This document shows, piece after piece, positions 147-61,084 of a stretch of 61,084 nt of DNA (positions within the stretch are counted from its first letter, which is position 1; each line of letters begins with the position of its first letter). The notes under the pieces are model-generated. The model saw only the letters and a list, made by a program, of their open reading frames with translations, ran no database searches and had not been told where the DNA came from. The DNA lies in the IMG/VR virus record IMGVR_UViG_3300032516_003835, positions 1 through 61,084 of that record, one strand, 5' to 3'. The translations under genes and the position numbers were made by a program. Source of the stretch: a virus (lineage: Duplodnaviria; Caudoviricetes).

Positions 147-620
147 TTAAGTCGAGAACGTGGCTTCCGGCAGCTTGAAGGCATGGACCTGGATATCGCC
201 GAATCCGGCCGTCAGTGCGGCGCCGGTGGAGTTGCACAGAGACGAGCAGGAGACCGTCATCATGACGTCGAGGTAGTTCTCGCCGAGGGTCACCAGGCCG
301 GAGGACGTCGCGGCGATACCGAACCTGGCCATGTCGAACGGCCCGAAGAGCCAGTGGGACGCCCCCGAGGAACAGGTCTGGATCAGGAACGTCTCGCTGC
401 CGATACCCGAGCGCCAGAAATCGCCGGGCTGGACGGTCAGCCTCATGTAGCGAGCCTCGGCGACCTCGGAGGAGGCCACCCAACAAACCATGAACGCGAC
501 TCGGTCGTTGAGGTCGTACTCGAATGCGAAGCCGGAAGACGTGGTGAAGACGATGAAGCCCGTGGATTTGACATTGCTATCGCGCAGCATCTGCGCGACA
601 GAGACAGCCTGCACAGCCAT
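147..620 (-). CDS. Putative capsid decoration/cement protein
   Basis: Directly downstream of the major capsid gene; SD GAGGTGA precedes ATG 620; Ser/Thr-rich; GPF motif shared with 57532..57948. Confidence 0.55.
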   Translation of the reverse strand: MAVQAVSVAQMLRDSNVKSTGFIVFTTSSGFAFEYDLNDRVAFMVCWVASSEVAEARYMRLTVQPGDFWRSGIGSETFLIQTCSSGASHWLFGPFDMARFGIAATSSGLVTLGENYLDVMMTVSCSSLCNSTGAALTAGFGDIQVHAFKLPEATFST

Positions 621-660
621 GCGGATCACCTCATAAGGAGCGGAACTCTGGAGCGGGAGC

Positions 661-1518
661 CTAGATGTTAATCTCCGTGGTGTAGACCGCGGTCATGCTG
701 ACCAGCTGACGCGGATCCATGACCTTGGCCCCGTAGACCAGCAGGCCCCTGACAACGTCGGAGAAGTTGTCGTGGGAGCGGTAAGCCTCATTCTCCAAGA
801 CCTGCTGGGCGAACGTGAGGGCGGGTTTGCGGCCGAACAGACAGTAGCTCGTATAGTCCGGCGCGGTGCCCGTGGTCACGACGTTGTTGCTCATGTAGAA
901 ATCCATCCCCAGGGTAGGCATGCTGCCGATGTAGCCGGTCTTGATGATGTCGACGTTGTCGGTCTTCTTCAGGATGTTGGCCAGAGTCAGGCTGAGTGCG
1001 AACCAGGGCGGGACGACGCCCCAGCGACCCTCATTCGGGACGTTGTTCTCGTTCATCAACTGGGCGACGTAGCCGATCAGGCCGATCACGTTGCCTGAGT
1101 TGACGGCGGTCGAGCCGTGGGACGTGATGCTCGCTCCGGCCTGGGTGTAGAGGTTGGCGACGTAACTGTCGATGACATGCCCGAGCCCGAAGGCGGCTCG
1201 GTCGGCCGCTTGTTCGAGGAGGTTCGGCGTTGACTGGACCTTGTCCACGTCCTCAACCCCAAAGGCGTAGTAGTGGCCCTGGTCAACGGTCAAGACGGTC
1301 TGGACGGACTTCAGGTGCTCCACGGTGATCGTGGTCTTGCCCGGAGCATAGGGACTGATCGTGATGTCGCCGATCTGGTTAACGTGGACCGTGTTGCCCT
1401 GGGCCGTGATCTCGCCCTCGTAGTCCGTGTTACAGAGGGCCTTAAAGACCAGGGCATCATCGAGATGTTCCATGAGACGGGCATCCCAGAGTTCCGGTAC
1501 GAAGTTCTTGGTGGACAT
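661..1518 (-). CDS. Major capsid protein (P22 coat gp5-like family, HK97 fold)
   Basis: N-terminal NFVPELW..RL, NTDYEGEI..GNTVHV and C-terminal F.D.VRGLLVYGAKV motifs; follows the scaffold gene. Confidence 0.9.
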   Translation of the reverse strand: MSTKNFVPELWDARLMEHLDDALVFKALCNTDYEGEITAQGNTVHVNQIGDITISPYAPGKTTITVEHLKSVQTVLTVDQGHYYAFGVEDVDKVQSTPNLLEQAADRAAFGLGHVIDSYVANLYTQAGASITSHGSTAVNSGNVIGLIGYVAQLMNENNVPNEGRWGVVPPWFALSLTLANILKKTDNVDIIKTGYIGSMPTLGMDFYMSNNVVTTGTAPDYTSYCLFGRKPALTFAQQVLENEAYRSHDNFSDVVRGLLVYGAKVMDPRQLVSMTAVYTTEINI

Positions 1519-1590: not shown

Positions 1591-2307
1591 CTAAGTCTTG
1601 CCGGCGAGGATGCCGTCGAGGTTGCCGGCTTTGTACTCCTTGTTGATCTGGTCCCTGGGCATCTTCTTGAGGGCCTCGCGGGTGATCGCCGTGCCCGTGT
1701 CCTTCGTGGGCGGCGGCGGTTTGGTTCCATCGGTCTTGAACCGGGCGTCCACGGCCTTGCCCAGGGCGCCCGCGAAGGCCTCCTCGAGGCGGCGCAGGTT
1801 GGCGTCCGTTGTCTCCTCGTCATGGCCGATCAGGTGATCGACGAGAGTCGACAATTCCGCCGGCAACGCCTTCTGCCCGATGTAGCCAAGGGCGCGGGTT
1901 TTGAGGGCCTCGCGGGCCCGGGCCGCTTTCTCGTTCACGAGTTCCTGCTCGATGGCCTCAATCCGCCTCTCGGGCTCGCTCTTGGGCGGGTTCAGCTTGA
2001 CGACTTCGGCCTGGACGAGGCCCGGCAAGGTCTTCTGCCGGTAGGTCTCCACGGCGTCGGTTACGCGCTTATCGGTCAGAGACTGGGCGAGCTTCTTGCC
2101 CTCGTCCGCGCTCTCCAGCCACCCTCTGACTCCGTCGGGCGTCATGAGTGCGGCTACGAGGGTCTGGGTTTCGGGCTTGTCCCTGCCGTCGGCGAGGAAC
2201 TTCTTGACCCCGTCAGCGGTTACCGGAACCAGGCTCGCGAGATGGGCCTGGACCTCCGGGTCGGCCTGGTGCTGTTCAAGCAACGCCTTAACCTCGGCTA
2301 GCGACAT
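1591..2307 (-). CDS. Capsid scaffolding protein (DUF4355-like)
   Basis: Charged helical protein with DKRVTDAVETY and a C-terminal ITREALKKMP motif, directly upstream of the capsid gene. Confidence 0.8.
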   Translation of the reverse strand: MSLAEVKALLEQHQADPEVQAHLASLVPVTADGVKKFLADGRDKPETQTLVAALMTPDGVRGWLESADEGKKLAQSLTDKRVTDAVETYRQKTLPGLVQAEVVKLNPPKSEPERRIEAIEQELVNEKAARAREALKTRALGYIGQKALPAELSTLVDHLIGHDEETTDANLRRLEEAFAGALGKAVDARFKTDGTKPPPPTKDTGTAITREALKKMPRDQINKEYKAGNLDGILAGKT

Positions 2308-2357
2308 GCGAGGCACTCTCCTCTGCCCTCCCCGGTGCGAGCCCGGGAAGTGCGTGG

Positions 2358-3650
2358 TTAGCGGATGCGGAACGAGCCGTCGAGGACCGGGACCCGGAGG
2401 GCCTCCGTTTCCCTACCCTCGAACTCTTTCAAGATAGCGAAAACTTTCCGGTAGACATAGAGGAGGAACTCGACCTCGTCGTCCCCATGAGCGTACTGCA
2501 TCGAGTGCTGCCCGAGGCAGAGGACGCCGCGGGCGAAAACCTCCTGGAGATAGAGCGTCTTCTGGGCCTGGTCACGGAACCGCAGGAACGACCAGGCGGG
2601 ATGCCCGGTGCAAGAAAGGTCGAGTTCGAGGCGCCCCGCGATCTCATTTGCGCCGACCAGGAGTTTGCGGCCGAACTCGGCGAGACGGTCCGGGACTTTC
2701 TCCCTCCGCAGCTTCAGCAGGGTGGCCTCCGCAGCCGCCAGGGAGAGGGTCTCGCCCGAGTAGGTGAACGAGCAGTGAACCCGCTCCATGAGGCTCATCA
2801 CGTCGTGCCGGCCGACAAGGGCGCTCAGCGGGTAGCCGTTGGCCAGGCCCTTGCCGAACGTCGCCAGGTCGGGCTCGACGCCGAAATGCTCCTGAGCCCC
2901 GCCCAACCCGAACCGGAAGCCGGTGATGACCTCGTCGAAGATCAGCAGGGCCCCGTTCTCGTGGCAGAGATCCCGGACACCCTCCAGGAAACCGGCCTCG
3001 GGATAAGCATGGTTCATCGGCTCCATAATGACGCAGGCTACCTGAGCCGGCCGGGCTTCGAAGATGCGCTCCAGGCTGGGCAGGTCGTTGTAGCGGAAGG
3101 CGTGCGTCAGATCCCTGACGGCCTGGGGAACTCCCAGGTTCCGGCCGCTGACTCCGACGGACCAATCCTGCCACCCATGGTACCCACAGGTAGCGACATG
3201 GTCTCTCCCCGTGTAGGCGCGGGCCAGGCGGATGGCCATGGAGGTGGCGTCAGAGCCATTTTTGCCGAAGCGGACGGACGCGGCGCAGGGAATCATCTCG
3301 ATCAGGAGCTCGGCGACCCGGATTTCCACCGGATGGGGCAGGCCGAAGAGGACTCCCGCCTTGCGCTGGGCATCGACCGCGGCCTCTACGTCCGGATCCC
3401 GGTAGCCGAGGAGGACGGCGGTCAGGACCGAGCCGAAGTCCAGGAACTCGTTCCCGTCAACGTCCCAGACCCGACAACCCTCGCCGCGCTCCAGGTACAG
3501 AGGGGAGACGCCGGGCGGGTAGGTAGTCCGCGACTTCGAGAATGTCCCCGTCCCGCCGGGGATGACGTCGAGGGCGCGGGCGAGCAGGGCCTCGGAGCGG
3601 GCGAAGCGGGTGTCTGCGCCAAGAAGCGCCTTCACGCCAGTGGCGAGCAT
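2358..3650 (-). CDS. Class III PLP-dependent aminotransferase (GSA-aminomutase-like, sugar-cluster type)
   Basis: G.RVWDVDGNEFLD, RFGKNGSDA, GYHGWQDW, LIFDEVITGFR, PDLATFGKGLANGYP (PLP lysine). Confidence 0.9.
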   Translation of the reverse strand: MLATGVKALLGADTRFARSEALLARALDVIPGGTGTFSKSRTTYPPGVSPLYLERGEGCRVWDVDGNEFLDFGSVLTAVLLGYRDPDVEAAVDAQRKAGVLFGLPHPVEIRVAELLIEMIPCAASVRFGKNGSDATSMAIRLARAYTGRDHVATCGYHGWQDWSVGVSGRNLGVPQAVRDLTHAFRYNDLPSLERIFEARPAQVACVIMEPMNHAYPEAGFLEGVRDLCHENGALLIFDEVITGFRFGLGGAQEHFGVEPDLATFGKGLANGYPLSALVGRHDVMSLMERVHCSFTYSGETLSLAAAEATLLKLRREKVPDRLAEFGRKLLVGANEIAGRLELDLSCTGHPAWSFLRFRDQAQKTLYLQEVFARGVLCLGQHSMQYAHGDDEVEFLLYVYRKVFAILKEFEGRETEALRVPVLDGSFRIR

Positions 3651-3847
3651 GCGGGAACCTCCTTCGTTTCGTGGAGGACGCAACCGAAGCTAGGATGGAC
3701 CCAACCGAAAGGCCACCATCCGCCCCCGGGCGGGTTCTTGGCGCACCATTTGAAGCCGACCTTGATGAGCAACTCAGTGAAAAAGGAAGGGGCCTCCGGG
3801 GACTCGACGTCACCCCAGAACTTGCAGACCTTGCACCTACCGTCCAC
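3632..3847 (-). CDS. Small Cys-containing hypothetical protein
   Basis: GTG start overlapping the upstream gene; CKVCKFW..C..FGCVLHE pattern. Confidence 0.55.
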   Translation of the reverse strand: MDGRCKVCKFWGDVESPEAPSFFTELLIKVGFKWCAKNPPGGGWWPFGWVHPSFGCVLHETKEVPACSPLA

Positions 3848-4535
3848 GCTGCGCCTCCCACTCCAGGATGTCCTCCATCCCGAACTCAGGCTTCGCCGGG
3901 TAGAGCGCCTCGAAGATGGCCCTGACCCGCTCGTAGTCCTCGGTCGTATCCACCGACCACTTGCGGGCCGAGAGGTCGGGCCCATGGCCGCAGTAGGTGA
4001 TCTCGTAGCGCTCCGGCTGCCGGCGCATGTAGCGAGTAACGTGCTCTCGGTCCTGCGGCCCGAATGTCCAGGTGTTGGCCTCGGCCAAAGCGGAACCCGT
4101 GAATGCCTCGACGTCGAAACCGTCCGGGTAGCCCGCCCCGGCCTGACCCGTATTGACGGTCAGGTCCGCCCCGAAGCGCAGATGATCCCCGATTACCAGG
4201 TCGATGACCTCCGGGTCAGACAGCGGGCAGTCGCCGGTGAGACGAACGATAGTGTCGGCCTTCCCGCTACCGTGGATGCGATGGGCCTCGCTAAACCGCC
4301 GGAGCACGTCGTCTCGCGGCCCCAGGCAGTAGGCCACCCCGAGCCGCTCGCAGAGGTCGGCAATGGCCTGGTCCTCGGGTTCCCCGGTCGTCGCGACGAC
4401 AAGCTTGTCGATAAGTTTGCTGCGGCGGACCCGCTCGATCTGCCGGGCCAGCATCGGTTCACCCAGGAGTGGGAGAAGGGCCTTGCCGGGCAGGCGGGTC
4501 GAGGCCATGCGGGCCTGGATGATGGCGAGGATCAT
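3837..4535 (-). CDS. spsF: Acylneuraminate-type cytidylyltransferase (SpsF/PseF/NeuA family)
   Basis: IIQARMASTRLPGK.L, DVL.RF, IVRLTGDCPL, REHVT.Y and SVDT.ED motifs. Confidence 0.9.
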   Translation of the reverse strand: MILAIIQARMASTRLPGKALLPLLGEPMLARQIERVRRSKLIDKLVVATTGEPEDQAIADLCERLGVAYCLGPRDDVLRRFSEAHRIHGSGKADTIVRLTGDCPLSDPEVIDLVIGDHLRFGADLTVNTGQAGAGYPDGFDVEAFTGSALAEANTWTFGPQDREHVTRYMRRQPERYEITYCGHGPDLSARKWSVDTTEDYERVRAIFEALYPAKPEFGMEDILEWEAQRGR

Positions 4536-4747
4536 CCGCAGACCCTCCCTGCGACCCACTCCCAGAGTTCGGCGAGGGCCGCCCCGCCCAGGAGGCAGCA
4601 CAGTGCGAGGGCGAGAAAGCCCGCCACTCCCGCCAGGCACCACGCCGCAAAGAGTAGGAAATGCCCGCTCTCCAATCCCAGCGCGAGAATGAGGAGGAGC
4701 AGGCCGAGGGCGAACCACCGAGTCAGCGTGGTGTCCGGCGAGGGCAT
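4532..4747 (-). CDS. Small membrane protein
   Basis: Two hydrophobic segments; start and stop overlap both neighbours. Confidence 0.55.
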   Translation of the reverse strand: MPSPDTTLTRWFALGLLLLILALGLESGHFLLFAAWCLAGVAGFLALALCCLLGGAALAELWEWVAGRVCG

Positions 4748-5541
4748 CACGCGAGCCACCTCCTGGGATCGAGCAAGACCTCGTCCACCGTCGGAAGGTC
4801 CGGCTCCCAATCCAGAGGCTCGACCGCGAGGACCTCCGCGAGCTGCGCGGCTGAGTTGACACCGACTACGGCGAGGTCGATGAAGTCGAGGCCCAGGACG
4901 TAGCCCAGTGCCCCCTGAAGTGGGGTCAGCCCCCGCCTGGCGCAGGCCCGGCGGAAGGCGCCCAGGGGCGCGGCCAAGCCCGCCAGGTGCGCGGGTAGTT
5001 CGGCGGGCGCCATGAGCAAGGATCCCTGCAGGAACACGCTCCGGGCCTGGATCTCGATTCCCCTGCCATGGATCTCGCGGAGGAGGTCGACGAGGCGGCG
5101 GTCAAGCATGCTTACCGGGGCCTGGATGACGTCGGGCTGGGGTAGGAGATCCATCGCCCGGCGGACGTCGGCCTCGGTGTAGCAGCTGACGCCGATCTTG
5201 TCTGCCCAACCGGCGGCGCGGAACCGGACCAATTCCGGCCAGGCGTCGAGGTTCTCTGGGTCGTGGAGCAGGATCGCATGGAGACTCCGGGTCCGGAGCT
5301 CCGTAAGGGTGTGGTAGGCGTCTCGGCCATCGGCGGTCTTTGTCGTGAGCCGGAACAGGCCGGGCGACATGTAGCGGCCGAGGAGACGTTGGCAGCCGTA
5401 GGCCGGGGCCGTGTCAATGTGGGCGATCCGGCCCTCGGCGGCGGCGATGATGGCGGCGACCTCGGACTCGGCCGGCCGGCCGTCGTTCGCGACGCCGTAT
5501 TCGGCGACGAAAGAAGCGGTGCCAAGGGACAGTGAAACCAT
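4747..5541 (-). CDS. Aldo/keto reductase
   Basis: LSLGTA.F...YG, IDTAPAYG, TTK, LLH, KIGVS.Y, EIQARSVFLQG, VVGVNS..QL; SD AGGAGG before ATG 5541. Confidence 0.9.
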   Translation of the reverse strand: MVSLSLGTASFVAEYGVANDGRPAESEVAAIIAAAEGRIAHIDTAPAYGCQRLLGRYMSPGLFRLTTKTADGRDAYHTLTELRTRSLHAILLHDPENLDAWPELVRFRAAGWADKIGVSCYTEADVRRAMDLLPQPDVIQAPVSMLDRRLVDLLREIHGRGIEIQARSVFLQGSLLMAPAELPAHLAGLAAPLGAFRRACARRGLTPLQGALGYVLGLDFIDLAVVGVNSAAQLAEVLAVEPLDWEPDLPTVDEVLLDPRRWLA

Positions 5542-5555
5542 GGGGCAACCTCCTA

Positions 5556-5759
5556 TCAGGCAGGACGGGGCGCGGTCATGCAACTCGTGTAGGTTCTGGG
5601 CGGCATCCGAACCTCAATGGCCCGGACGTAGTCCTCAAAGGTCATGCCCAGCAGGTCGAGGGCCTCGGCGAGTCTCGGATTCTCCTCGAAGTAGCCTTCG
5701 GCAATCTCCCGAGCGGTCGGGAACTCACCTGGGACGGTATTACAAAGAGGGACGATGAC
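5556..5759 (-). CDS. Small hypothetical protein (start uncertain)
   Basis: 3' half of ORF 5556..5936 looks protein-like; strong SD GAGGGAGG at 5767-5774 is followed by GTC/ATC, not a canonical start. Confidence 0.4.
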   Translation of the reverse strand, partial: VIVPLCNTVPGEFPTAREIAEGYFEENPRLAEALDLLGMTFEDYVRAIEVRMPPRTYTSCMTAPRPA

Positions 5760-6046: not shown

Positions 6047-6088
6047 CGTGACCGGGCCCGGCGCTCTCCGGGTCGTCCACGCATGGCC

Positions 6089-6481
6089 TCAATCTCTTCC
6101 CGCCCCAACTGCCTGCGGCGCGGGCAAGGGAGGTCGTGTCATCGGGTCTCCCAGTGCCTCATAGGTCTGCTCGAAGATGTCGGGTTCGCAGAAGTCGCGC
6201 TTGCCGTTGGCGTTCCTAATGATGTAAGCGCCGACGTTGACCCGACGCCATCCGTTATCGGCAGTCTCAATGATTAGTGCTTCCACGGGACGGGGAGTCT
6301 CGCGTAAACCGCCGCTCCGAATGGCGGCGACCAATCCTCCCATGGTGTCATCCCAAGGCTCCCGCGGAGCACTCCGCACTAACATGCCGTCAAGCGCGGC
6401 GGCTAGATAGACGGCGTTTTCTTCGGTCAACCGGATGGCCTCGACCTCAGTGGGACGCCTGCGGATCCGTAGCCAATTCAC
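6089..6481 (-). CDS. Conserved phage hypothetical protein
   Basis: RPTEVEAI...G.YII.....G....C.PDIFEQTYE pattern common in phages; GTGA overlap with the neuB stop. Confidence 0.65.
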   Translation of the reverse strand: MNWLRIRRRPTEVEAIRLTEENAVYLAAALDGMLVRSAPREPWDDTMGGLVAAIRSGGLRETPRPVEALIIETADNGWRRVNVGAYIIRNANGKRDFCEPDIFEQTYEALGDPMTRPPLPAPQAVGAGRD

Positions 6482-7383
6482 TTCGGACACGGTCTCAATC
6501 TCCTTCCTCCCCAATCCGCGCGCCGGGCGATGACTCGCCAGTCGCGCTCGTTCTCCTCTACGCGCTTGACCCCGTCGCCGAGGGCGAGTTCCAGTTGGCG
6601 AACCTCATCCACCATGACCTGAAAGTCGGCGGACTCCAGGGCGAAGTGATGGTCAGGACCGGGACGCTCGGGGTTGTCTGTGAAGTGCTTTTCGATGACC
6701 TTCGCGCCCAAGGCTACCGCGCCGAGAACGTCGAGAGAGCCGGGCGCGTGGCTGCTGAAACCGAGGACGGCCTTGGGAAGCGCCTCCGCGTAGGTCTGAA
6801 GCACCTTCAGGTTCAGGTGACGGTAGGCGTCGGGGCTGCCGTCGTAGTTGAGGTTGCACTGCATGAGAACATGCGGGACTCCCTCATCGGCCAGGATGCC
6901 CGCCACGCACTGGACCTCGTGCGCGGTGGCGGCCCCGGTCGAGACGATGAGGGGCTTCCCCTTCCGGGCGAGGTAGCCCAGGAAGCCGAGCTCGACAAGG
7001 TCGCCGGAACCGACCTTGTAGGCGTGGACGTAGGGTTCCAGGGCGTCCGCCGCCGCTTCGTCGTAGGGCGTCGAGAGGAAATCGACTCCGGCCTGTTTGC
7101 AGACTCCGGACAGTGTCGGAATCCAGTCGAGCGGCGTCTCGGCCTTCTCGTAGACCTCGTAAAGCTCAGGCCGGCCGATAGAGGCGAACCCTTCCCGGCT
7201 GGCCAGGGTTTCGGCCTTGAAGTGCTGGAACTTGACGGCGTTCGCGCCGGCGATGGCCGCCAAGCGAATGAGATCCGAGGCGCGGTTAAGGACACCGTTG
7301 TGATTCGCTCCGATGTCGGCGATGAAGTAGACGGGGTAGCCGGGGCCGACACGGTGAAGCCGGGAGAGTTGAACCTCGGTCAC
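6478..7383 (-). CDS. neuB: Nonulosonic acid synthase (NeuB/PseI/SpsE family), no C-terminal SAF domain
   Basis: YFIADIGANHNG, GANAVKFQ, FLSTPYD, YKVGSGD, KPLIVSTG, GAKVIEKHFT, GPDHHFALE; GTG 7383 overlaps the pseB stop. Confidence 0.9.
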   Translation of the reverse strand: MTEVQLSRLHRVGPGYPVYFIADIGANHNGVLNRASDLIRLAAIAGANAVKFQHFKAETLASREGFASIGRPELYEVYEKAETPLDWIPTLSGVCKQAGVDFLSTPYDEAAADALEPYVHAYKVGSGDLVELGFLGYLARKGKPLIVSTGAATAHEVQCVAGILADEGVPHVLMQCNLNYDGSPDAYRHLNLKVLQTYAEALPKAVLGFSSHAPGSLDVLGAVALGAKVIEKHFTDNPERPGPDHHFALESADFQVMVDEVRQLELALGDGVKRVEENERDWRVIARRADWGGRRLRPCPK

Positions 7384-8366
7384 GAAACCATCCTCCTTAC
7401 CTCTTCGGCTGTCATGAGGTTCTCGGGCGAGTCGCTTGTGTAGCGCCAGCCGGGGGGCCGGATCTCCGGACGATCGGCGGTCGCCTTGGGCCCGTATCCC
7501 ACGACATGCCACGGGAACTGCGGCTCGATGACGTAGCGGGAGCCCCGGTCTGTCGTCCGCCGGGCCTCCTCCTCCGAGATCAGGCACTCGTGGAGCTTCT
7601 CGCCGGGCCGAATGCCGGTAACCCTGACCCAGGCCGCCGGCGCCACGACCCGGGCCAGGTCGGCGACAAAGCAGGACCGGAGTTTGGGGACGAATATCTC
7701 ACCGCCCTCGCCACTGAAGAGGGCCCCCAGAACAGCCGCGGCGGCGTCCGCCGGCGTCAACCAGAACCGGGTCATGCCCTCCGCCGTGAGGGTGACCTGC
7801 CCATCCGCGGCGGCCTGCCTCCGCCAGAGTTCCACGACCGATCCACGGCTCCCGAAGACATTGCCATAGCGAATGACACTGAAGCGCGTCCGGCGGTCTC
7901 CCGCGTAGGCGTTCGCCCCGATGAAAAGACGCTCGGCGCAAGCCTTGGTCGTCCCGTAGAGGTTTGCCGGCTCGACGGCCTTGTCTGTGCTCACGGCCAC
8001 CACCCGGCGCACATCCCGCTCCAGGGCGGCCTCGATCACGTTCTCGGCTCCGAAAACATTCGTCCGAACGGCCTCGAAGGAGTCGTACTCACAGGCTTCG
8101 ATCCGCTTCATGGCCGCCGCGTGGATGACGTAGTCCACTCCCCGGAAGGCCATGAGGAGGCGGTCCTTGTCGCGGACGTCGCCCAGGAAGAAGCGTAGGC
8201 GGTCGTCATCCTCGAACTCGGCTCTCATCTGGGCTTGCTTGTACTCATCGCGCGAGAGGATGACGATCCGGGCCGGGCAGTCTTCGCGGGGCAGGAGCTC
8301 CCGGACGAGGGCGTGACCCAGGGTGCCGGTGCCGCCGGTAATGAGCAGGGTCTTGTCGGTGAGCAT
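7380..8366 (-). CDS. pseB: UDP-N-acetylglucosamine 4,6-dehydratase (PseB/FlaA1-like)
   Basis: LITGGTGTLG, SRDEYKQ, RFFLGDVRD, HAAAMK, STDKA..P.NLYG.TK, RYGNVFGSRGSV, MTRFW, GIRPGEKLHE. Confidence 0.92.
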   Translation of the reverse strand: MLTDKTLLITGGTGTLGHALVRELLPREDCPARIVILSRDEYKQAQMRAEFEDDDRLRFFLGDVRDKDRLLMAFRGVDYVIHAAAMKRIEACEYDSFEAVRTNVFGAENVIEAALERDVRRVVAVSTDKAVEPANLYGTTKACAERLFIGANAYAGDRRTRFSVIRYGNVFGSRGSVVELWRRQAAADGQVTLTAEGMTRFWLTPADAAAAVLGALFSGEGGEIFVPKLRSCFVADLARVVAPAAWVRVTGIRPGEKLHECLISEEEARRTTDRGSRYVIEPQFPWHVVGYGPKATADRPEIRPPGWRYTSDSPENLMTAEEVRRMVS

Positions 8367-39527: not shown

Positions 39528-40065
39528 TCTCCCGACCCGCCTTCCCCACCAGATAACCGCCGGCGACGAGCTCCTCCCGGCGGTGGATCCACACGTCCGC
39601 GAGACTCCTGCCGCCCCAGAGACAGAGATCTCCGAGGGCGTTCCAGCCCTGGTCCACCACGTCGGCCAACTGGTCGAGGGCGACGTCGAACTGCCTGTCT
39701 CCCTCCGCGCCAAGCTGGTCCGGCTCCACGGACTCGATCAGGGCCCCGAACCGCTCTAGCGCGGCGCGGGCATGGCCGATCTCCCGGAGAGCCCGGTCTC
39801 GGGCCGTCAGGCGGTGGTGGTCGGCGCGGGGCCCGTCGTGCCACATGGGGCCGACCCCGCCGTTGGCGCATAGCGCGGCCGCCGCATACGTAGCCGGGTG
39901 ATCCAGCGCGAGACAGAGCGGGGCGAGTAGGGCTAGTGGGGGATTCGTGTCGCCCCGCTCCATGGCCGAGATCATGCCGTCAGTGACGAAGATTTTTCGA
40001 GCCAGGCGCTCCTGCGACAGCCCCCGATCGCGGCGGGCGGCCATGAGCGCTTGTGGAAAGTCCAT
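39511..40065 (-). CDS. XRE-family HTH regulator (cII position)
   Basis: ARRDRGLSQERLA..IS.MERG..NP. Confidence 0.8.
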   Translation of the reverse strand: MDFPQALMAARRDRGLSQERLARKIFVTDGMISAMERGDTNPPLALLAPLCLALDHPATYAAAALCANGGVGPMWHDGPRADHHRLTARDRALREIGHARAALERFGALIESVEPDQLGAEGDRQFDVALDQLADVVDQGWNALGDLCLWGGRSLADVWIHRREELVAGGYLVGKAGRENAKSA

Positions 40066-42306: not shown

Positions 42307-42502
42307 GGCCGCCTTCAACCATCCCTGCCCACAACCGCCCACCGCATACCGGCCCGCCCCCCTCATCCCCGCTAACGCCCAGCATACCCACCAATTTCAC
42401 CCAGTGGCAGGAACTCCCGCCTGCTCGCCGAACGCTACCACTCCCCGGTATTCGTCGCCGAAAGTCTCTACCGCACCCCTGGGGGCAGGAGGGGTGATAT
42501 GG

Positions 42503-42997
42503 GTGAAGACGGATCCCGTTTCCCTGGCCCGGCGCATTCTCGCCGAGGCCGGCCATTTCGAGGTTTGCCGCCTGCGGCCCCAGGTCAATCTCGGCTGGCT
42601 CCTCCGCCACCTGGGTCTCGACTGGAGGCGCTGGAGCCTCGGCGGTCTCGCCGGGGCCCTGGTCCAGATCGAGGGCCGCTGGTACGTGGTCACCGACTCG
42701 CGGCAGGCGGCCGGCCGTCAGCGGTTCACTGCCGCGCACGAGCTCAAGCACTTCCTCGCCGACCGGCCGCAAATCCATGTCTTCCCCCCGCGGGCCAGTG
42801 CGGATACCCAGATCGAGCGGGAGGCCGACGTTTTCGCCCGCGAGCTCCTCATGCCCGATGAGTCGGTCTCCTGGCTCTGGCGGCAGGGGCTCCGCTCCCC
42901 GGTCGAGATCGCGCGGGCCTTGGGGGTGAGTTCGGAGGCGGCCGGGATCAGGTTGGCGGAACTGGGCCTAGGAGAACGGAGGCTTTGGTCGAACTAG
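42503..42997 (+). CDS. ImmA/IrrE-family metallopeptidase
   Basis: RQRFTAAHELKH, E.EAD.FA.ELLMP, IARALGVS. Confidence 0.88.
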   Translation: MKTDPVSLARRILAEAGHFEVCRLRPQVNLGWLLRHLGLDWRRWSLGGLAGALVQIEGRWYVVTDSRQAAGRQRFTAAHELKHFLADRPQIHVFPPRASADTQIEREADVFARELLMPDESVSWLWRQGLRSPVEIARALGVSSEAAGIRLAELGLGERRLWSN

Positions 42998-43039
42998 GGG
43001 CGACGCGCCCCTTGAGGGTGGAGGGCGGAGGTGGGGCCG

Positions 43040-44221
43040 ATGGTCACCGGGCACGTCGAGAAGCGCGGTAAGCGGGGCTGGTCGAGTTTGCTGATCGACT
43101 ACGGCTATGGGCCGGACGGCAAGCGCCGAAGGCGCAGGGTAGCGGTGAAGCGCCCGGACGGTAAGCCCGTGACCAAGGGCCAGGCCGAGACGGAACTCCG
43201 CAAGACCTTGGCCGAGATCGATGCAGGGACTTACGTCGAGCCGTCGGCCCTCCGCTATGGCCAGTGGCTCGAGGACTGGCTCACGCTGACCCGCCGTGAG
43301 CCGGGCACGCGCCGGGCCTACGGGAGTCTAATCCGGTGTCACGTCCTCCCGGCCCTCGGCGATATTGCCCTCCAGGAACTCAAACCCCTCGACATCCAGC
43401 GACTATCGGCGGCGCTGGAGGCCAAGGGCCTGGCGCCGGCGACACAGCACACAATCCGCGCTATCATCGTGGGCAGCCTGGGCCAGGCGGAGCGGCTGGA
43501 GATGATCTCTCGGAATCCCACTCGAAAGGTGACCTGGCCGTCGGCGCCACGCTTGGAGGTCGTGGCCCTCGACCGCGCGCAGACGCGGACCCTGCTCGAT
43601 CGCGCTCGGGCCTGGGAGCACTACTCGGCCTTGGCTTTGGCCCTGTGGTCGGGCCTCCGAATCGGAGAGCTCCTCGGACTGCGCTGGGCGGACGTCGATC
43701 TTGAGGGCCGCCTCCTCCACGTGCGCCACCAGCTCAAGAGGGCGCGGCCGGAGCCGGCATGGAAACCGCCCAAGACCGTGGCCGGCCTCCGCGACGTCCC
43801 GTTTGGCGCGACGGCTACCGCCCTCCTGCGCGGCCAGCGCAAGCGACAGGTCCAGAGTCGCCTGGCGCTCGGCCCCGCTTATCACCCCCACGATCTGGTG
43901 ATATCGTGCGCGGACGGGAGAGCTCTCCCGGATTACGCGCTCCGGGAGGCATTCGCCGGCCTGATGGCCACCGAGGGGCGGGCCGGCTTCCCGTGGCACG
44001 GCTTGCGCCATACCTACGCCACTTTGCTCCTGGCCGAAGGCGTCGAACTCCACGTCGTTTCCCGGCTCCTCGGCCACTCGAATCCGTCGATCACCCTCCG
44101 CTACTACGCGGCTTATCTGCCGTCGAGCCGGGCGGCCGCGGCCGAGAGGCTGGAGCGGGCCATCGGCGGGCACCAAGCGGGCACCGGCGGCGGCTCAGAC
44201 GGAGGCGGCTCCGACTCATAA
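43040..44221 (+). CDS. int: Tyrosine integrase
   Basis: SGLRIGELLGLRW.DVD, PKT, HGLRHTYATLL, VSRLLGHS..SIT..YY. Confidence 0.95.
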   Translation: MVTGHVEKRGKRGWSSLLIDYGYGPDGKRRRRRVAVKRPDGKPVTKGQAETELRKTLAEIDAGTYVEPSALRYGQWLEDWLTLTRREPGTRRAYGSLIRCHVLPALGDIALQELKPLDIQRLSAALEAKGLAPATQHTIRAIIVGSLGQAERLEMISRNPTRKVTWPSAPRLEVVALDRAQTRTLLDRARAWEHYSALALALWSGLRIGELLGLRWADVDLEGRLLHVRHQLKRARPEPAWKPPKTVAGLRDVPFGATATALLRGQRKRQVQSRLALGPAYHPHDLVISCADGRALPDYALREAFAGLMATEGRAGFPWHGLRHTYATLLLAEGVELHVVSRLLGHSNPSITLRYYAAYLPSSRAAAAERLERAIGGHQAGTGGGSDGGGSDS

Positions 44222-47122: not shown

Positions 47123-47767
47123 CTACTTCCGGAGCAGGCCCCAGAACCGCCAGAGCACGGTCAGGAGCCAGATTCGCGTCACCGGCGCCTCGCGGGGCAG
47201 CTCGCCGCCCTGGCCGGCGACCAGAGCCGGCCCCTTGTTGCCCAGGGGGTCCTTCGCCCAGCAGGCGGCGTCATACCCGTAGTGCTCCGGCCCGATGTCA
47301 GCGAACGGCGTAGCCGCGAAGGGCCGGGGGTCGATCCGGTTGTCCGCGGCCGGGCCCGGGCCCCGGACCGTGAGATGGAGATGGGGGCCGGTGGTGTTTG
47401 TCCCGCTATCCCCGGAAAGGCAGACGACGTCTCCAGCGGTGACGGTCTGGCCGGCCTTCGCGGAGGCCGCGGAGGCATAGACCTCGGACAGGTGGTGGTA
47501 GCCGGAGTGGTAGCCCCCGCCGTGGCCGAGCCAGAGGTACAGGCCCCCGCGTATGGTGGAGGATACCTCCCGGACTACCCCGTCAGCGATGGCCCGGACC
47601 GGGGTTCCGACAGGCACTTCGAAGTCTAAGCCCTTGTGTTGCCCCTTGCCCTTGTGCGGACCCGACGTCGCCTTGGGTTCCCAGTGATCGCCCCAGGCAT
47701 CGAACGCGGCCGAGAGTTTGGTCTCAGGGGCTACCGGGCTGATGAAGGGCGGTCTTAGCGCAGCCAT
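47123..47767 (-). CDS. Endolysin: M23 peptidase with C-terminal SLH-like domain
   Basis: HKGLDF.VPVGTPVRAIADG, YHHL, TTGPHLH, IDP; then FADIGPEHYGYDA..WA....APVTR. Confidence 0.85.
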   Translation of the reverse strand: MAALRPPFISPVAPETKLSAAFDAWGDHWEPKATSGPHKGKGQHKGLDFEVPVGTPVRAIADGVVREVSSTIRGGLYLWLGHGGGYHSGYHHLSEVYASAASAKAGQTVTAGDVVCLSGDSGTNTTGPHLHLTVRGPGPAADNRIDPRPFAATPFADIGPEHYGYDAACWAKDPLGNKGPALVAGQGGELPREAPVTRIWLLTVLWRFWGLLRK

Positions 47768-47991
47768 AGCCGCACCCCCAGGTCTACGACTACGCCGCAG
47801 AGGAGCAGGATCACGGCCACCAGGGTCGAGCCTACCTGCCTCCGCACGGCTCCGACCTCGTTCCGGAGTTCCCTGAGCGTGCCGTTTTGATCGGCCTGCC
47901 ACCGCTGCAGGTCCGTGATGGCCTGTCCATGCGCCCCGCACATAGCGAGGTCGAGCTTAGGCCGAACTTCGGCCGCCGTCACTCGCGCCAC
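47755..47991 (-). CDS. Small holin/XhlA-like protein
   Basis: Coiled coil with QNG and a C-terminal TM segment; first gene of the lysis block. Confidence 0.6.
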   Translation of the reverse strand: MARVTAAEVRPKLDLAMCGAHGQAITDLQRWQADQNGTLRELRNEVGAVRRQVGSTLVAVILLLCGVVVDLGVRLWLR

Positions 47992-57248: not shown

Positions 57249-57535
57249 GCCAGCCTCACCCGGTAGGAGCCCCTGAGGAGGTCGGAGATCTCGGGCGGTT
57301 CCCCGGCGACTCGGGAAACTGAGTAGTCGCCGAGGGACTCTCCGGTGACGCCCGCTTCGGCATCGCACAGCCACCGCGCTTTCTTGGCGACATAGAGCCT
57401 CATGCCGGCGGTCATGCCCGGATTGCCCGTCCGGTCCATAACCTCTTCCTCCAGGAGCGGCAGGAGGGCCTCGAACTGGGCGTCGTACTGGGTCGAGTTG
57501 ATCCCCAGAAACCCCTTGGCCTCGGCCGGCGTCAT
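57245..57535 (-). CDS. Head-tail connector (SPP1 gp15-like)
   Basis: EAK.FLGI....D, GVT.ESLGDYSVS, L..YR. Confidence 0.8.
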   Translation of the reverse strand: MTPAEAKGFLGINSTQYDAQFEALLPLLEEEVMDRTGNPGMTAGMRLYVAKKARWLCDAEAGVTGESLGDYSVSRVAGEPPEISDLLRGSYRVRLA

Positions 57536-57948
57536 GGCGCCGTCACCACCCAGAAGGTGAGTTCGGACGACTGAGCGGCCGTCAGGGGCGTGTAGTCCGC
57601 CTCCGAACTCGCCGTCGTCGCCATGTCGAGGTAGAGTTTGCCGACGTCCGTCCCTGACAACTGGTTATAGATGCTCGGCCTGAAGGGGCCTAGAATGGCC
57701 TCCCAGTCCTCGGACGAGCAGGCCAGCCCCAGGATGATGGACCGGTCGGCTACCTCCAGGCTGTCGCCATCGACGAGCTGGGCCGCCCCGATGACGAGGC
57801 GCCGCCCTCCGGAGGAGGCGGCATTCGTAATCCCGAGGAAGGACCGGCCGTTGTTCGTGAACATGAGCCCGCCCGTGGAAGAGGATGATGGGTCGAGCAG
57901 GCTCCCGCCCATGGTGCTGGTTACGACTGTCAGTTCCCGACGAGCCAC
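57532..57948 (-). CDS. Putative head decoration protein
   Basis: F.NNGR.FL.I.N and ILGPF...YN motifs; Ser-Ser rich; in the head module. Confidence 0.55.
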   Translation of the reverse strand: MARRELTVVTSTMGGSLLDPSSSSTGGLMFTNNGRSFLGITNAASSGGRRLVIGAAQLVDGDSLEVADRSIILGLACSSEDWEAILGPFRPSIYNQLSGTDVGKLYLDMATTASSEADYTPLTAAQSSELTFWVVTAP

Positions 57949-57971: not shown

Positions 57972-58463
57972 CTAGATGAACTCGATCAGCCTGACCGTGA
58001 CGTCGAAGTGGGACGTGGCCGTCCCGATGTAGTCGGTGGAGCCGACGTCGTTTCGCATGACGATCTTGAGATCGCCGCCGCCGAACAGAGCCCTGGCGAT
58101 GTCGTAGCGGACCACGTCGTAGCTCGTGGGAGTGCAGACAGCCATGGTCGTCCCAAACGAAAGCAGATACGCGTTACGGTCGGCCGCCGCGAGAGACGAC
58201 GTGACCGTGAACAAGTCGAACGTCAGCGAGGTCACGGTAGACGGGTTGTGCACAAAAAATTGGTACCCGTCGCGCGACTTGATCGGCTTCGTGACGGTCT
58301 GCGTCACGGGCGTTCCCGAGGAGGTTGTATCGACGTGGAACGTGAGGTCGGCTCCGACCTTCGCGCCAGAGATGTAGCGGAGAGAGTCGAGGCCGGTCGT
58401 GAGGTCGGTCAGTTGTGTGGACAGAAAATCAAGCGAGCTTCTTACGTGCTGAGTCTCTACCAT
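57972..58463 (-). CDS. Putative virion structural protein (Thr/Ser-rich)
   Basis: Beta-rich and Thr/Ser-rich; in the head module. Confidence 0.5.
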   Translation of the reverse strand: MVETQHVRSSLDFLSTQLTDLTTGLDSLRYISGAKVGADLTFHVDTTSSGTPVTQTVTKPIKSRDGYQFFVHNPSTVTSLTFDLFTVTSSLAAADRNAYLLSFGTTMAVCTPTSYDVVRYDIARALFGGGDLKIVMRNDVGSTDYIGTATSHFDVTVRLIEFI

Positions 58464-58469
58464 ATCTGG

Positions 58470-58970
58470 TCACCCCCGAGCAAACGAGAAATGCAGGGCG
58501 TCCCAGAGCCGTCCCGCCCACCGTTTCCGGCGAGGCAGCCTAGCGATGATCGCTCCGCGTCGTGCGCATTCCCTCTGCCAGAAAGCAATTGCCGGGTTAC
58601 ACTCGTAGCACTCGCCCCAGACTGTCAGCAGGCCCATCCGGTCGAATGCCTCCTCCAGGACGAGGTCCAGCGCCGCCTTTCCGTGTCCCCGCCGCCGGAG
58701 GGCGGGGTCGATCATCAGTGAGATCTCGGCCAGGCCGTTCTCCCACTGGATGTCTACAAGGCCGATCATGCCTACGAGAGTTCCGCCGCCATCCACTGCC
58801 CAGAACCGGGCCCGAGCCGAGCGATCGCAGACAACCTCGCGGTACCAGGCGGCCTGCATCTCGGCGGTCAGGGGAAACGGGGTTCGAAGGGCCTCGGGGT
58901 GCCGGTTCCGCCAGGCGACTACCTGGAGAGCGTCCTCCAGGCTCAGGGCCCGAAGCGCGATCACGTGCAC
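58470..58970 (-). CDS. GNAT N-acetyltransferase (PseH/RimJ-like)
   Basis: WRN......LRT......Q..WY, VGMIGL..I.W....AEISL.IDP..RRRGHG, AF..MGL. Confidence 0.85.
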   Translation of the reverse strand: MHVIALRALSLEDALQVVAWRNRHPEALRTPFPLTAEMQAAWYREVVCDRSARARFWAVDGGGTLVGMIGLVDIQWENGLAEISLMIDPALRRRGHGKAALDLVLEEAFDRMGLLTVWGECYECNPAIAFWQRECARRGAIIARLPRRKRWAGRLWDALHFSFARG

Positions 58971-60019
58971 TCCCTCCAGGTCTTCCGCATCTCGGTGACC
59001 GCCTGGCGGGCGCCGGCGTTCATATGTTTCATCGTCCGCGCCTTCTCGCGTTCGGCGGCCGCCTCCCCGAAGCGCTTGGTGACGCCCTCCAGGACGGATG
59101 TCACTTTCGCGCCGACCTCGTTACGGAGGGCGTTGAGCAGAGACGCGGCCGCGGGCCTCGCCTCGGCCGGGCAGGCGTGCCGGTCGAGGGCCCCGGCCGG
59201 ATCGAGGATTTGAACGATCGTGGAGCCAGCTTCGCGGAGCGCGTGTTCGGCGCCCTGATATTTCAGGCAGACCTCCGTCAGTTGGCGCTCGGCCTGCTCC
59301 GCCGTGTCGTGGCGACCCCCGACGATCTTCAGCGTGGCGTCGCATTTGGCGTCGAAGCCGGCGGCCGCAGCGGCCTGGAGGCCATAACGGAACCGGGTTT
59401 TCAGTAGATCCGACCCCGGCGGGATGACGACCTTGATCCCCCGGCCGACGGCGAGGCCGAGGAAATACTCGCAGGACGGCCGCTGCGATTCGTACTCGCT
59501 TCCCACCGCCATGTCCACGCCGTAGACGTGGATCTCGCGGTAGCCCTCGGCGATGGCCAGGGCGATCATGTAGGAGATCGTGTTCGTGAAATAGTCGCTG
59601 ATCGACCCACCCAGGCGAGCGATGACCCGCGCCAGCGGGTAGGCGACCGAGTTCGGCAGTTCCGGCCAGGTCTCCCCCATGATGATGGGGCAGGTGAGTT
59701 CCCGGAGCCGCTCCGGATGGGGCTTCCCCTCGGTCCGGGTCGTGTGGGTTTCGACCTCGCCGCGCTGGTGAACCTGGAACAGGCGGTCGCAGCGCGGGAT
59801 GACCTCGAAAATGTCATTGAGGCCCCATATCTCCATGTCGGGGTCGGCGTAGGGCGCGTCGCCGCGCGTACCGGAAAACCCCACGATGCAGACCCGCTTG
59901 GACTTCGGGAACCCCGCCAGCGGGGCGGGAGGCGTCGGGCCCCAGAGCCGGCGGAAGGCTTTGGGCGGGAGCATCGGGGTCGGCACTTGGGCCTCTGTGG
60001 AAAGCGCGATATCGGTCAT
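58961..60019 (-). CDS. Putative nonulosonate (sialyl/Maf-like) glycosyltransferase with C-terminal coiled coil
   Basis: VCIVG, WGLN and NTISYMIALAIAEGYREIHVYGVD resemble the Maf/GT42/GT29 core motifs. Confidence 0.6.
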   Translation of the reverse strand: MTDIALSTEAQVPTPMLPPKAFRRLWGPTPPAPLAGFPKSKRVCIVGFSGTRGDAPYADPDMEIWGLNDIFEVIPRCDRLFQVHQRGEVETHTTRTEGKPHPERLRELTCPIIMGETWPELPNSVAYPLARVIARLGGSISDYFTNTISYMIALAIAEGYREIHVYGVDMAVGSEYESQRPSCEYFLGLAVGRGIKVVIPPGSDLLKTRFRYGLQAAAAAGFDAKCDATLKIVGGRHDTAEQAERQLTEVCLKYQGAEHALREAGSTIVQILDPAGALDRHACPAEARPAAASLLNALRNEVGAKVTSVLEGVTKRFGEAAAEREKARTMKHMNAGARQAVTEMRKTWRECT

Positions 60020-60029
60020 GGCGAACCTC

Positions 60030-61022
60030 CTAGACGGGAGTCTCGGTGCGAAACCTCGGAAACATATGGGTGGCAAAGCCTTCCTTGAACAGGCTGATCG
60101 TCGCCTCTTTGCCTGGCCCGTAAACCCGCTCGCCCAGCCTCAATGACCGGAGCCCCAGGCCCTTGGCGTGCTCGATGGCCCGCCACAAGGAGACGTGCCC
60201 GAGGGGCAACCCCTGGGCCTCCAGCCCGCGGTCGTAGGCCGCGCTGGCATAGAGGGCCTCATGCCGGGAGTGGTGGAACAGGGCGTAGCCAATGAGCATA
60301 TCCTCGGCCTCCCGCAGAGTCACCACGAATCCCTCTCCGGCCGAGATGGCGCGGAACTGCAGGTCCCAGGTCTCGCGGGGCCTGGTAGTCCGCCCGGCGA
60401 CCATGCGATGGAGTTCCCGGCACTCATCCCAGGTCTCGGGAGCGAGTTCCGGGCCCAGAACCTCGACCCGCCAGAGGTCGGCCTTGCCGAGGAGGGGGCG
60501 GTAGGACTTCCGGACATTGAGCCGGAGGGCGTCGAGCCGCCAAGAGAGATCCGCGAAGAGTTCGTAGCCGACAGTGACTGCGGCCGCCCGCTCGGCAAGG
60601 CGCCGATGCCAGAGCGAGAGCCCGCCCGGGCCGACGATCTCCTCGCCGGTCCATGACGGCCGGCCCAGGGTGGCGCACAGGAGGGCCAGAGTGTCGAGGC
60701 AGGCGTCGATGACCCTCTTCCGGCTTCGCTCCTGGGCCGCGGTCACGAACAGTGGCGGCCCCGCCGGTGCTCCGCTTGAGACTGGGACCCCCTCCCCGAC
60801 CCCCAGAACCCAGGCCCCGACCAGTGAGCCCCCGTCGCGGATCGTCATCGACAGATCGGTGAGGCCATGGTAGGCGGCCTGGTAGTCGATCATGGTGGAA
60901 GCGTAGGCCGCCGGCGCGTGGCCGGAGGACGCCAGGACGGAGGCCCAACCCTCGGCGTCGTCAGCGCGCGGCCGGACGTCGAACGGCATGGCGGACATGA
61001 CGGCCGGCCAGAGAGCGTCCGT
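60030..61022 (-). CDS. FemAB-like double-GNAT acyltransferase
   Basis: DLS......NVRKSYR.L, H..VAGR.TR..ETW, Y...AYDR, LGH...W.AI, I..FK.GF; start is ACG 61022 or ATG 60998. Confidence 0.8.
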   Translation of the reverse strand, partial: TDALWPAVMSAMPFDVRPRADDAEGWASVLASSGHAPAAYASTMIDYQAAYHGLTDLSMTIRDGGSLVGAWVLGVGEGVPVSSGAPAGPPLFVTAAQERSRKRVIDACLDTLALLCATLGRPSWTGEEIVGPGGLSLWHRRLAERAAAVTVGYELFADLSWRLDALRLNVRKSYRPLLGKADLWRVEVLGPELAPETWDECRELHRMVAGRTTRPRETWDLQFRAISAGEGFVVTLREAEDMLIGYALFHHSRHEALYASAAYDRGLEAQGLPLGHVSLWRAIEHAKGLGLRSLRLGERVYGPGKEATISLFKEGFATHMFPRFRTETPV

Positions 61023-61084
61023 GGCGGTTACCTCCCATCCGGGCGGCCGGGGAGGAGCGCGAGGCCCCTGCCCGACTTAGCGGG
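60944..61084. repeat. Terminal direct repeat, right copy
   Basis: 140/141 identical to 1-141. Confidence 0.95.

Follow-up and report, generated by a model that had tools for sequence, protein, structure and literature searches.

A putative CMP-nonulosonate transferase of a phage family related to GT42 sialyltransferases, encoded among the head genes of a tailed phage

We analysed a stretch of 61,084 nucleotides from a virus (Duplodnaviria; Caudoviricetes; IMG/VR record IMGVR_UViG_3300032516_003835, positions 1 to 61,084), here called the window, and in it a minus-strand gene (58961..60019) for a protein of 352 amino acids (aa), here called the candidate. An original prediction, made from the sequence alone, had proposed that this protein carries out the transfer step for a nonulosonate activated with cytidine monophosphate (CMP). 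The explanation we find best as a whole, with a probability of roughly 0.6, is that the candidate is a phage transferase related to glycosyltransferase family GT42, which would use a CMP-sugar made by a cassette of the same phage and attach it to a phage protein. Three independent lines of evidence, from structure, sequence and genomic setting, give good support to the putative transfer function: the match of the predicted fold to GT42, profile homology to GT42 and co-occurrence with the nonulosonate synthase gene neuB. It is likely that the candidate is the CMP-nonulosonate transferase of a phage self-glycosylation system, and the chances that the acceptor is a head protein appear evenly balanced. 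Nonulosonic acids are surface and flagellar decorations of bacteria and animals, with effects on immune recognition, charge, binding to mucus and the adsorption of phages.

Fold and sequence relationships of the candidate

The AlphaFold2 model, built on an alignment of 83 sequences, reached a mean predicted local distance difference test score (pLDDT) of 86.3 and a predicted template modelling score (pTM) of 0.73, and consists of an alpha/beta domain (residues ~40-212) followed by a hairpin. The long helical tail that had been proposed is predicted as two long antiparallel helices, 216-271 and 285-350, mostly with a pLDDT of at least 90. In a Foldseek search of the PDB with the whole model the first 14 matches were CstII and Cst-I, with E-values from 3.9e-5; with an exhaustive aligner coiled-coil matches dominated, and Cst-I scored Z 10.4. 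Because coiled-coil matches to the tail swamped the whole-protein scan, residues 30-215 were refolded alone, giving a model with pLDDT 86.7 and pTM 0.86.

With this isolated domain, Foldseek ranks 1-16 were all GT42 enzymes (CstII, Cst-I and the Pasteurella enzyme; E 1.4e-5 to 2e-3, TMq 0.55-0.61), and next came a thiamine pyrophosphokinase (E 0.011), the 6-hydroxymethylpterin pyrophosphokinase (HPPK) MptE (0.026) and ST3Gal-I (0.035). Among the 48,161 chains compared with VIA-align only four reached a Z-score of at least 8: Cst-I (10.9; root mean square deviation 3.2 over 157 residues), MptE HPPK (8sd5_A; 10.1), Maf (5mu5_A; 10.0; deviation 3.4 over 153 residues) and SteA (8.5). Lower scores were found for GT29 (5.7-7.3), for thiamine pyrophosphokinases (5.2-6.4) and for unrelated folds (at most 5.4). 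This comparison had been set beforehand as a check on the prediction, and the model places the domain in the superfamily of sialyltransferases, Maf and MptE. The Z-scores of the modelled domain alone do not separate the branches of this superfamily.

The branch was addressed with sequence profiles. The references, all taken from genomes of a single bacterial order, were 19 proteins of the CST-I family and the central domains of 17 Maf proteins. In hhalign the phage family aligned to GT42 over 122 columns (probability 80.1%, E 1.4e-5) and to Maf over 22 columns (4.4%, E 0.0094). A control alignment of GT42 with Maf gave 5.8% (E 0.0065, 31 columns), and the negative control, the phage family against NeuB, gave 0.5% (E 0.13, 30 columns). 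The support for profile homology to GT42 is moderate, not overwhelming, with an identity between the candidate and GT42 of about 15%. A sequence-profile search of the PDB with the candidate returned a best E-value of 0.07, to an unrelated protein.

The GT42 alignment pairs N68 of the candidate with N31, D169 with D154 and Y176 with Y162; it also pairs strand 1 and its glycine loop, and the N146 helix cap with a T-S-G cap. All 19 GT42 proteins have N31, D154 and Y162; the phage family keeps N68 and D169 without exception and shows at least 90% conservation of Y176. We take Asn31, Asp154 and Tyr162 of GT42 to be contacts to CMP and phosphate. The coordinates and motifs of the original prediction were exact (VCIVG at residues 43-47, WGLN at 65-68, TISYMIALAIAEGYREIHVYGVD at 147-169). 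It had also stated that the order of these motifs marks GT29, GT42 and Maf proteins; the profile alignment bore this out for GT42, and for Maf only the helix-strand-Asp motif could be aligned.

The phage family and its genomic company

A word-indexed search returned 539 relatives among 8,000 scored candidates. Their source names all read 'hypothetical protein', and Pfam recognised on them nothing but an intein endonuclease domain. When 1.84 billion cluster representatives (50% identity) were searched exhaustively with a profile, 5,416 matched at E of at most 1e-3 and 1,944 at E of at most 1e-30. The family is thus unannotated, comprises at least 5,416 clusters and is almost wholly restricted to phages; it is a separate family outside the coverage of Pfam, PHROGs and NCBIfam. 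Pattern scans confirmed relatives on 405 of 2.9 million viral contigs in IMG/VR and at 25 loci in 185,579 species genomes. These loci were all on contigs of metagenome-assembled genomes (MAGs); phage head or tail genes lay at 19 of them, and the other six (1.9-7.8 kb) were without such genes. The 50,697 GenBank phage records held a single relative, annotated as 'type 11 methyltransferase', in Microcystis phage Mvi-Yong1342-1 (L001, record 34781-35584). All members of one ESM Atlas neighbour cluster, viral proteins of 442 aa that contain the candidate's domain, also have Methyltransf_11; fusions with a SAM methyltransferase thus exist, which may serve as a lead.

Family members mostly have 180-375 aa, and the relatives found, mostly of 230-260 aa, cover the first ~64% of the candidate. 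The long tail is common only to the closest ~8 relatives, and the relatives of SU10-type phages (~180 aa) are without it. In the 83-sequence alignment 19 residues are invariant (G47, P56, W65, N68, H84, P128, Y143, N146, G167, V168, D169, E175, S182, E184, G188, A190, G192, G194 and Y212), the helix between N146 and G167 is mostly at least 90% conserved, and so is a C-terminal K-x-W motif (W348). This conservation among 83 homologues shows that the motifs of the candidate are not chance strings. No fused forms longer than 616 aa were found in the search of the family, and a Pfam scan of 20 longer representatives yielded inteins only and no informative fused domain. Three NeuB-bearing phage records (G032, G041 and G068, behind loci L111, L122 and L149) have two family paralogues each; one lies by the capsid gene, the other within the sugar cassette or close to it.

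Inteins interrupt the family at one site, between GVDMAV(G/D) and (S/T)EY, in three of the listed proteins (P0010, P0063, P0102) and at three loci (L132:18005-19765, L140:14037-15626, L182:1426-3012); among the best 150 family representatives, 12 are split at this position of the family profile. A single intein site is typical of a functionally critical loop, and the conservation around it resembles that of an active site. Some of these inteins have a LAGLIDADG endonuclease domain, and one is a mini-intein.

The family keeps company with genes for nonulosonate synthesis. Where at least 9 kb of upstream sequence was available, nonulosonate genes lay within the flank at 16 of 22 family loci; of the other six, two have NeuB and CTP_transf_3 elsewhere in the record, and the last four belong to three records with a completeness of 35-60%. 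NeuB is present in the record for 11 of the 12 family-bearing contigs of at least 30 kb. Conversely, a NeuB profile scan confirmed 482 contigs among 2.9 million viral contigs, and 23 of the best 80 have a family member within 10 kb. The family was present in 30 of the 71 NeuB-bearing viral records that were searched whole. Records with a completeness of at least 90% had it in 10 of 11 cases, and those with terminal repeats in seven of eight. The single near-complete exception is a 291-kb phage with a PF01973 (MptE/Maf-like) open reading frame (ORF) beside NeuB, which therefore carries another member of the same fold. As a base rate, NeuB was found in three of 50,697 GenBank phage records. Co-occurrence with nonulosonate genes, which had been named as a check together with the fold, is strong in both directions, and the prediction withstood both checks.

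The cassettes differ in their chemistry. A typical one lies between terminase and portal and contains NeuB, SDR, CTP_transf_3, transketolase and FkbM methyltransferase, and in its place other phages have PseB or Epimerase_2, accompanied by variants of the aminotransferase and the hexapeptide acetyltransferase. That the family tracks NeuB and the cytidylyltransferase in most of several chemically different cassettes is as expected for a step after CMP activation. The transketolase/FkbM cassette, with a split transketolase, was seen 5' of the portal at L015, L018, L020, L022, L042, L048, L052, L080 and others; its gene content suggests that the product would be a non-standard, possibly methylated ulosonic acid and not neuraminic (Neu), legionaminic (Leg) or pseudaminic acid (Pse).

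The second neighbourhood is that of the head genes. The ORFs of 80 family-bearing viral loci were clustered and the cluster representatives annotated. Where 3 kb or more was available upstream, 43 of 49 loci have a capsid gene on the same strand that ends at most 2 kb upstream; the start of a connector or adaptor gene lies at most 3 kb downstream in 35 of 52 loci. The usual setting is a capsid gene, one Ser/Thr-rich unknown gene, the family gene and head-tail connector genes. Capsid adjacency is found across four head modules (HK97-type with PF04860 portal; Phage_capsid_4 with SPP1 portal, MuF and DUF4355; SU10-type podophage; Mu gpT-like), and small Ser/Thr-rich unknowns (20-27%) lie between the capsid gene and the family gene, or right after the latter, in nearly all lineages (L002-L081). 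A common acceptor family was looked for and not found, as the two largest families of Ser/Thr-rich neighbours are not detectably homologous (hhalign probability 0.3%). In one SU10-type module (L184:7752-9329) a GDSL-family esterase, which could be a sugar O-acetyl esterase or transferase, is placed between the capsid gene and a short family gene.

In the window itself the capsid genes and the candidate stand at opposite ends of the record. Nucleotides 1-141 equal nucleotides 60944-61084 with one mismatch. The record, listed as linear and 89% complete, therefore probably represents a circularly permuted genome of ~60.9 kb that is closed into a circle or has redundant ends. Because this 141-nt repeat joins the record ends, the capsid genes and the candidate are contiguous in the real genome. 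The junction was confirmed by L002, the contig of the candidate's closest relative, in which scaffold, capsid, a homologue of the 160-aa protein that follows the capsid gene in the window, FemAB and the candidate's relative lie on one unbroken piece.

Alternatives, proposed mechanism and known systems

A number of observations weigh against the transferase reading. By fold score, the MptE pyrophosphokinase (Z 10.1) and Maf (10.0) tie with Cst-I. In Pfam, PF06002 (CST-I) reached 10.4 bits against a cut-off of 25, with residues 149-174 on profile positions 134-159, and no match to the candidate was obtained in PF01973 (E up to 1), PHROGs or NCBIfam. The GNGPS loop of GT42, in which G8, N9 and S12 are invariant, is replaced by VGFSGT, where only G47 is invariant. 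An equivalent of the catalytic His188, invariant in GT42, was not found in the profile alignment, which stops at Y162/Y176 before H188; past residue 176 there is no invariant His in the 83-sequence alignment, where H84 is the sole invariant one. H84, E175 and E184 may be considered for the role of catalytic base. Because the alignment stops before H188, the GNGPS loop is replaced and the Pfam threshold was failed, the candidate's family stands, on these comparisons, as a family of its own, with remote homology to GT42 but outside GT42 proper.

Some of the genomic evidence points the same way. The complete 41-kb Microcystis phage Mvi-Yong1342-1 has its relative (34.6% identity) next to terS, and NeuB and CTP_transf_3 were not found in it; this relative would need a donor supplied by the host, or would have another function. 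The 37-kb phage G048, with terminal repeats, has NeuB and neither a family member nor a match to PF01973 or PF06002. The expectation that the closest viral relatives of the window's NeuB carry the family nearby failed in all cases (none of eight within 10 kb, hidden Markov model E up to 10); one of these eight records, G014, holds a family member beyond 10 kb. The co-occurrence counts treat related contigs as independent, several contigs occur in both sets, and the NeuB profile is partly circular in that 7 of its 12 sequences come from family-bearing loci. The enrichment of NeuB with the family is real in size, as counts without phylogenetic correction. The median Ser/Thr content of ORFs in these loci is 0.136, and the head-side neighbours (0.20-0.27) reach only about the 90th percentile.

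Given the tie in fold scores, the candidate might not be a glycosyltransferase at all and might instead be a nucleotide enzyme of the MptE/thiamine-pyrophosphokinase branch, for example a kinase or pyrophosphokinase with a sugar intermediate as its substrate. The scores of MptE, SteA and the thiamine pyrophosphokinases given above would fit such an enzyme, as would the failure to find the catalytic His of GT42 and one ESM Atlas neighbour cluster with PF01973 on 13% of its members. We consider this improbable, since Foldseek puts GT42 far ahead (E 1e-5 versus 0.011-0.026), the profile homology goes to GT42, and the family follows NeuB and the cytidylyltransferase despite differing precursor chemistry, which fits a step after activation. 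Furthermore, no second glycosyltransferase family was recognised among the ~80 window ORFs scanned, and without the candidate the CMP-sugar pathway of the window would have no transferase. The likeness to MptE and the thiamine pyrophosphokinases is one of fold, with no sequence match and no folate or thiamine context.

If the candidate is a nonulosonate transferase, its acceptor could lie outside the head. It could be a protein of the tail or fibres, or a host surface structure (lipopolysaccharide, capsule, flagellin or S-layer), which would be modified to mask it or to exclude superinfecting phages. The phage has the genes of a temperate one (integrase, IrrE/M78 peptidase, a helix-turn-helix (HTH) repressor-like gene), and the known bacterial relatives all act, by their structure titles, on surface glycoconjugates or flagellin. 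In L143, L145 and L134 the family gene sits inside the sugar cassette by NeuB and not beside the capsid gene, and the relative of the Microcystis phage adjoins terS. Against such an acceptor stands the co-directional arrangement of gene and cassette within the late head operon, away from the integrase and lysogeny module, and the capsid-connector position recurs in four unrelated head-gene lineages. A non-head acceptor therefore seems unlikely to us, though of the alternatives it is the one that should be taken most seriously.

The position among head genes would also suit a structural or assembly protein (decoration, scaffold-like or chaperone) with a non-catalytic transferase fold, and the long coiled-coil hairpin resembles that of many structural proteins; a modifier of packaged DNA might likewise be considered, as inteins are generally commonest in proteins of DNA metabolism. 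We regard this as very improbable. The 19 invariant residues are concentrated at nucleotide-sugar motif positions, the inteins sit within the nucleotide-sugar motif, the tail is dispensable in many relatives, and a purely structural role would leave the tight NeuB link unexplained.

The mechanism proposed for a GT42-related transferase is as follows. The candidate would be a soluble glycosyltransferase at work in the cytoplasm, from a large family specific to phages and remotely akin to CstII and Cst-I, and would be transcribed together with the sugar cassette and the head genes, presumably late in infection. The cassette enzymes (PseB-like dehydratase, aminotransferase, GNAT, NeuB-type synthase and cytidylyltransferase) would make a CMP-activated nine-carbon acidic sugar of pseudaminic type, possibly N-acylated further by the flanking GNAT and FemAB-like enzymes. 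This CMP-sugar, the presumed donor, may be bound through strand 1 with G47, N68, the N146 helix cap and the segment from D169 to Y176. While the head is being assembled or earlier, and still in the cytoplasm, the sugar would then be moved onto a head protein, in parallel to Maf and FlmG, which act on flagellins before export; the acceptor would most likely be Ser/Thr residues of the major capsid protein or of the small flanking Ser/Thr-rich proteins.

The hairpin appears as an insertion of variable length between the catalytic core and the conserved C-terminal K-x-W segment, which would return to the catalytic domain. It might serve self-association or oligomerisation, or act as a spacer or dock that touches the acceptor. 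Most relatives have a short tail or none, so that it cannot be essential to the function of the family. A wider proposal, that thousands of uncultured tailed phages from at least four unrelated head-gene lineages make CMP-activated nonulosonic acids of their own and self-sialylate their capsids with a phage-only family derived from GT42, and that the hairpin is a stalk positioning the enzyme on the procapsid lattice, is tentative and in our estimate falls somewhat short of an even chance.

Compared with known systems, the candidate shares with the GT42 enzymes CstII, Cst-I and that of Pasteurella (PF06002) the fold, profile homology, the conserved Asn, Asp and Tyr, the helix-strand-Asp motif and the genomic partnership with NeuB and a CMP-sugar synthetase. 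In contrast to the aligned GT42 proteins it has a hairpin tail, and the lid region and His188 are not alignable; the family resides in the phage head module and not in lipo-oligosaccharide loci, and its acceptor is probably a protein and not lipo-oligosaccharide. With Maf (PF01973; 5mu5) it has in common the fold of the central domain, and in both the core is flanked by helical accessory parts. Maf glycosylates its acceptor while this protein is still in the cytoplasm and has yet to be built into an extracellular polymer, which is the nearest functional parallel to glycosylation of a capsid protein. However, only the 22-column helix-strand-Asp motif aligns, there is no PF01973 match, and Maf proteins are three-domain proteins of ~600-700 aa (open frames of 566-711 aa in most matches), compared with 180-375 aa in the family and 352 aa for the candidate.

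Caulobacter FlmG is said to combine a TPR domain with a GT-B-type domain, a fold unrelated to that of the candidate. Both would place a nonulosonate on a secreted structural protein by means of a modular enzyme, the function of the candidate being predicted. For FlmG, one report describes cytoplasmic nonulosonate O-glycosylation of flagellin by a modular protein with a separate acceptor-binding part (PMC7591256). Virion glycosylation in mycobacteriophages (Che8/Corndog-type) is similar in that phage transferases lie next to structural genes and decorate capsid and tail. These systems reportedly use ordinary hexose glycosyltransferases and host nucleotide sugars, in contrast to the phage of the window with its complete nonulosonate pathway and a sialyltransferase-fold enzyme. 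The abstract of the Maravista announcement infers capsid glycosylation from two glycosyltransferases (PMC11256854), and the accessible portion of one review names phage pseI only in a table abbreviation (PMC6359870). Full-text literature searches returned no description of nonulosonate glycosylation of phage capsids or of the candidate's family.

If the proposed function is true, many environmental phages would spend 6-8 kb of a 40-60 kb genome on coating their own particles, and phage neuB and pseI genes would gain a function beyond that of an 'auxiliary metabolic gene'. The sialyltransferase superfamily would then gain a new branch that acts on a protein acceptor, and this branch would be a source of compact, soluble enzymes with which rare nonulosonates could be put on proteins.

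The late operon and the phage genome

The genome has 66% G+C and almost all of its genes are on the minus strand. The features of the late operon are collected in Table 1.

Table 1. Late genes of the window in minus-strand order, with the domains of the candidate
Feature	Position	Strand	Evidence or remark
Terminase	12286-13932	-	late operon
SPP1-type portal	10708-12273	-	late operon
MuF	9396-10310	-	late operon
HNH gene			follows MuF
PseB-like UDP-GlcNAc 4,6-dehydratase	7380..8366	-	TIGR03589 379.9 bits (cut-off 407.75); PF02719 E 6e-88
NeuB/PseI-type nonulosonate synthase	6478..7587	-	PF03102 E 1.4e-62; TIGR03569, TIGR03586
Two small unknown genes
Aldo/keto reductase, sugar cassette	4747..5583	-	PF00248
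Cytidylyltransferase, CMP-sugar synthetase type	3837..4862	-	PF02348 CTP_transf_3 E 1e-27
Class III aminotransferase, glutamate-1-semialdehyde aminomutase-like	2358..3683	-	PF00202 E 2e-51; NF004856 361 bits
Scaffolding protein	1591..2316	-	PF14265 DUF4355
Major capsid protein	661..1518	-	PF25209 Phage_capsid_4
160-aa Ser/Thr-rich (20%) protein directly past capsid gene	147..629	-	no family match
FemAB-family acyl/aminoacyl-transferase-like gene, directly upstream of candidate (past junction)	60030..60998	-	PF13480 E 1.1e-7; TIGR04421 192 bits (cut-off 250)
Candidate gene, sialyltransferase-like catalytic domain and helical hairpin	58961..60019	-	ORF, ribosome-binding site, homologues, structure
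Predicted catalytic domain, residues ~40-212, alpha/beta, GT42-like	59384..59902	-	Foldseek, VIA, hhalign, invariant residues
Predicted C-terminal antiparallel helical hairpin, residues 216-350, conserved K-x-W at end	58970..59374	-	AlphaFold2
GNAT N-acetyltransferase, directly downstream of candidate	58470..58970	-	PF13302 E 4e-16; TIGR03585 PseH 30 bits, below cut-off
163-aa Ser/Thr-rich (25%) protein	57972..58463	-	no Pfam or PHROG match; composition
138-aa Ser/Thr-rich (23%) protein ahead of connector genes	57532..57948	-	phrog_38030 (unknown function) E 0.0017; composition
Head-tail connector genes			end of the late order listed

The candidate reads from an ATG at 60019 to a stop codon at 58961-58963, with AGGAGG as a strong ribosome-binding site 7 nt 5' of the ATG. 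A longer frame started by TTG (to 60076, 371 aa) was considered and is less likely. The upstream FemAB-family gene stops 10 nt short of this ATG; on the downstream side, the GNAT gene shares 10 nt with the 3' end of the candidate. The order FemAB then candidate also occurs in L002, and a GNAT homologue comes after the candidate's relative in L006, L008 and L025. The FemAB-like enzyme might load an aminoacyl or acyl group onto the sugar or the acceptor, an unusual tailoring step.

Three small proteins of the operon could be modified. The 160-aa protein is a possible acceptor or decoration protein; a homologue search with it returned only itself, and relatives hold the equal position in L002, L006, L008, L029, L033 and L037. 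The 163-aa and 138-aa proteins are possible acceptors as well.

The true start of the NeuB/PseI-type synthase is probably later than 7587. The cassette is atypical for the pseudaminic type in having a class III aminotransferase where a DegT-type PseC would be expected, and no PseG-like hydrolase was recognised in it (2358-8366). A 141-aa protein (6089-6514) matches PHROGs of unknown function and, weakly, a nucleotide pyrophosphohydrolase.

By its gene content the phage is predicted to be temperate, with lysogeny-type genes at 39.5-44.2 kb: the integrase (43031-44221), the IrrE/M78 peptidase (42404-42997) and the HTH repressor-like protein (39514-40065). Bacillus and Staphylococcus phages were the best cultured relatives, at 41% identity, and were set aside as a poor fit to a genome of 66% G+C. 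The phage has replication and recombination genes of its own at 20343-44221, among them a DnaB helicase, an SbcCD-like pair (33663-37767) and RusA. Other genes of the window encode a C5 cytosine methylase, a 1045-aa ParB-domain protein (23040-26177), a DUF5131 protein (29729-30829) and an M23 peptidase (47126-47941).

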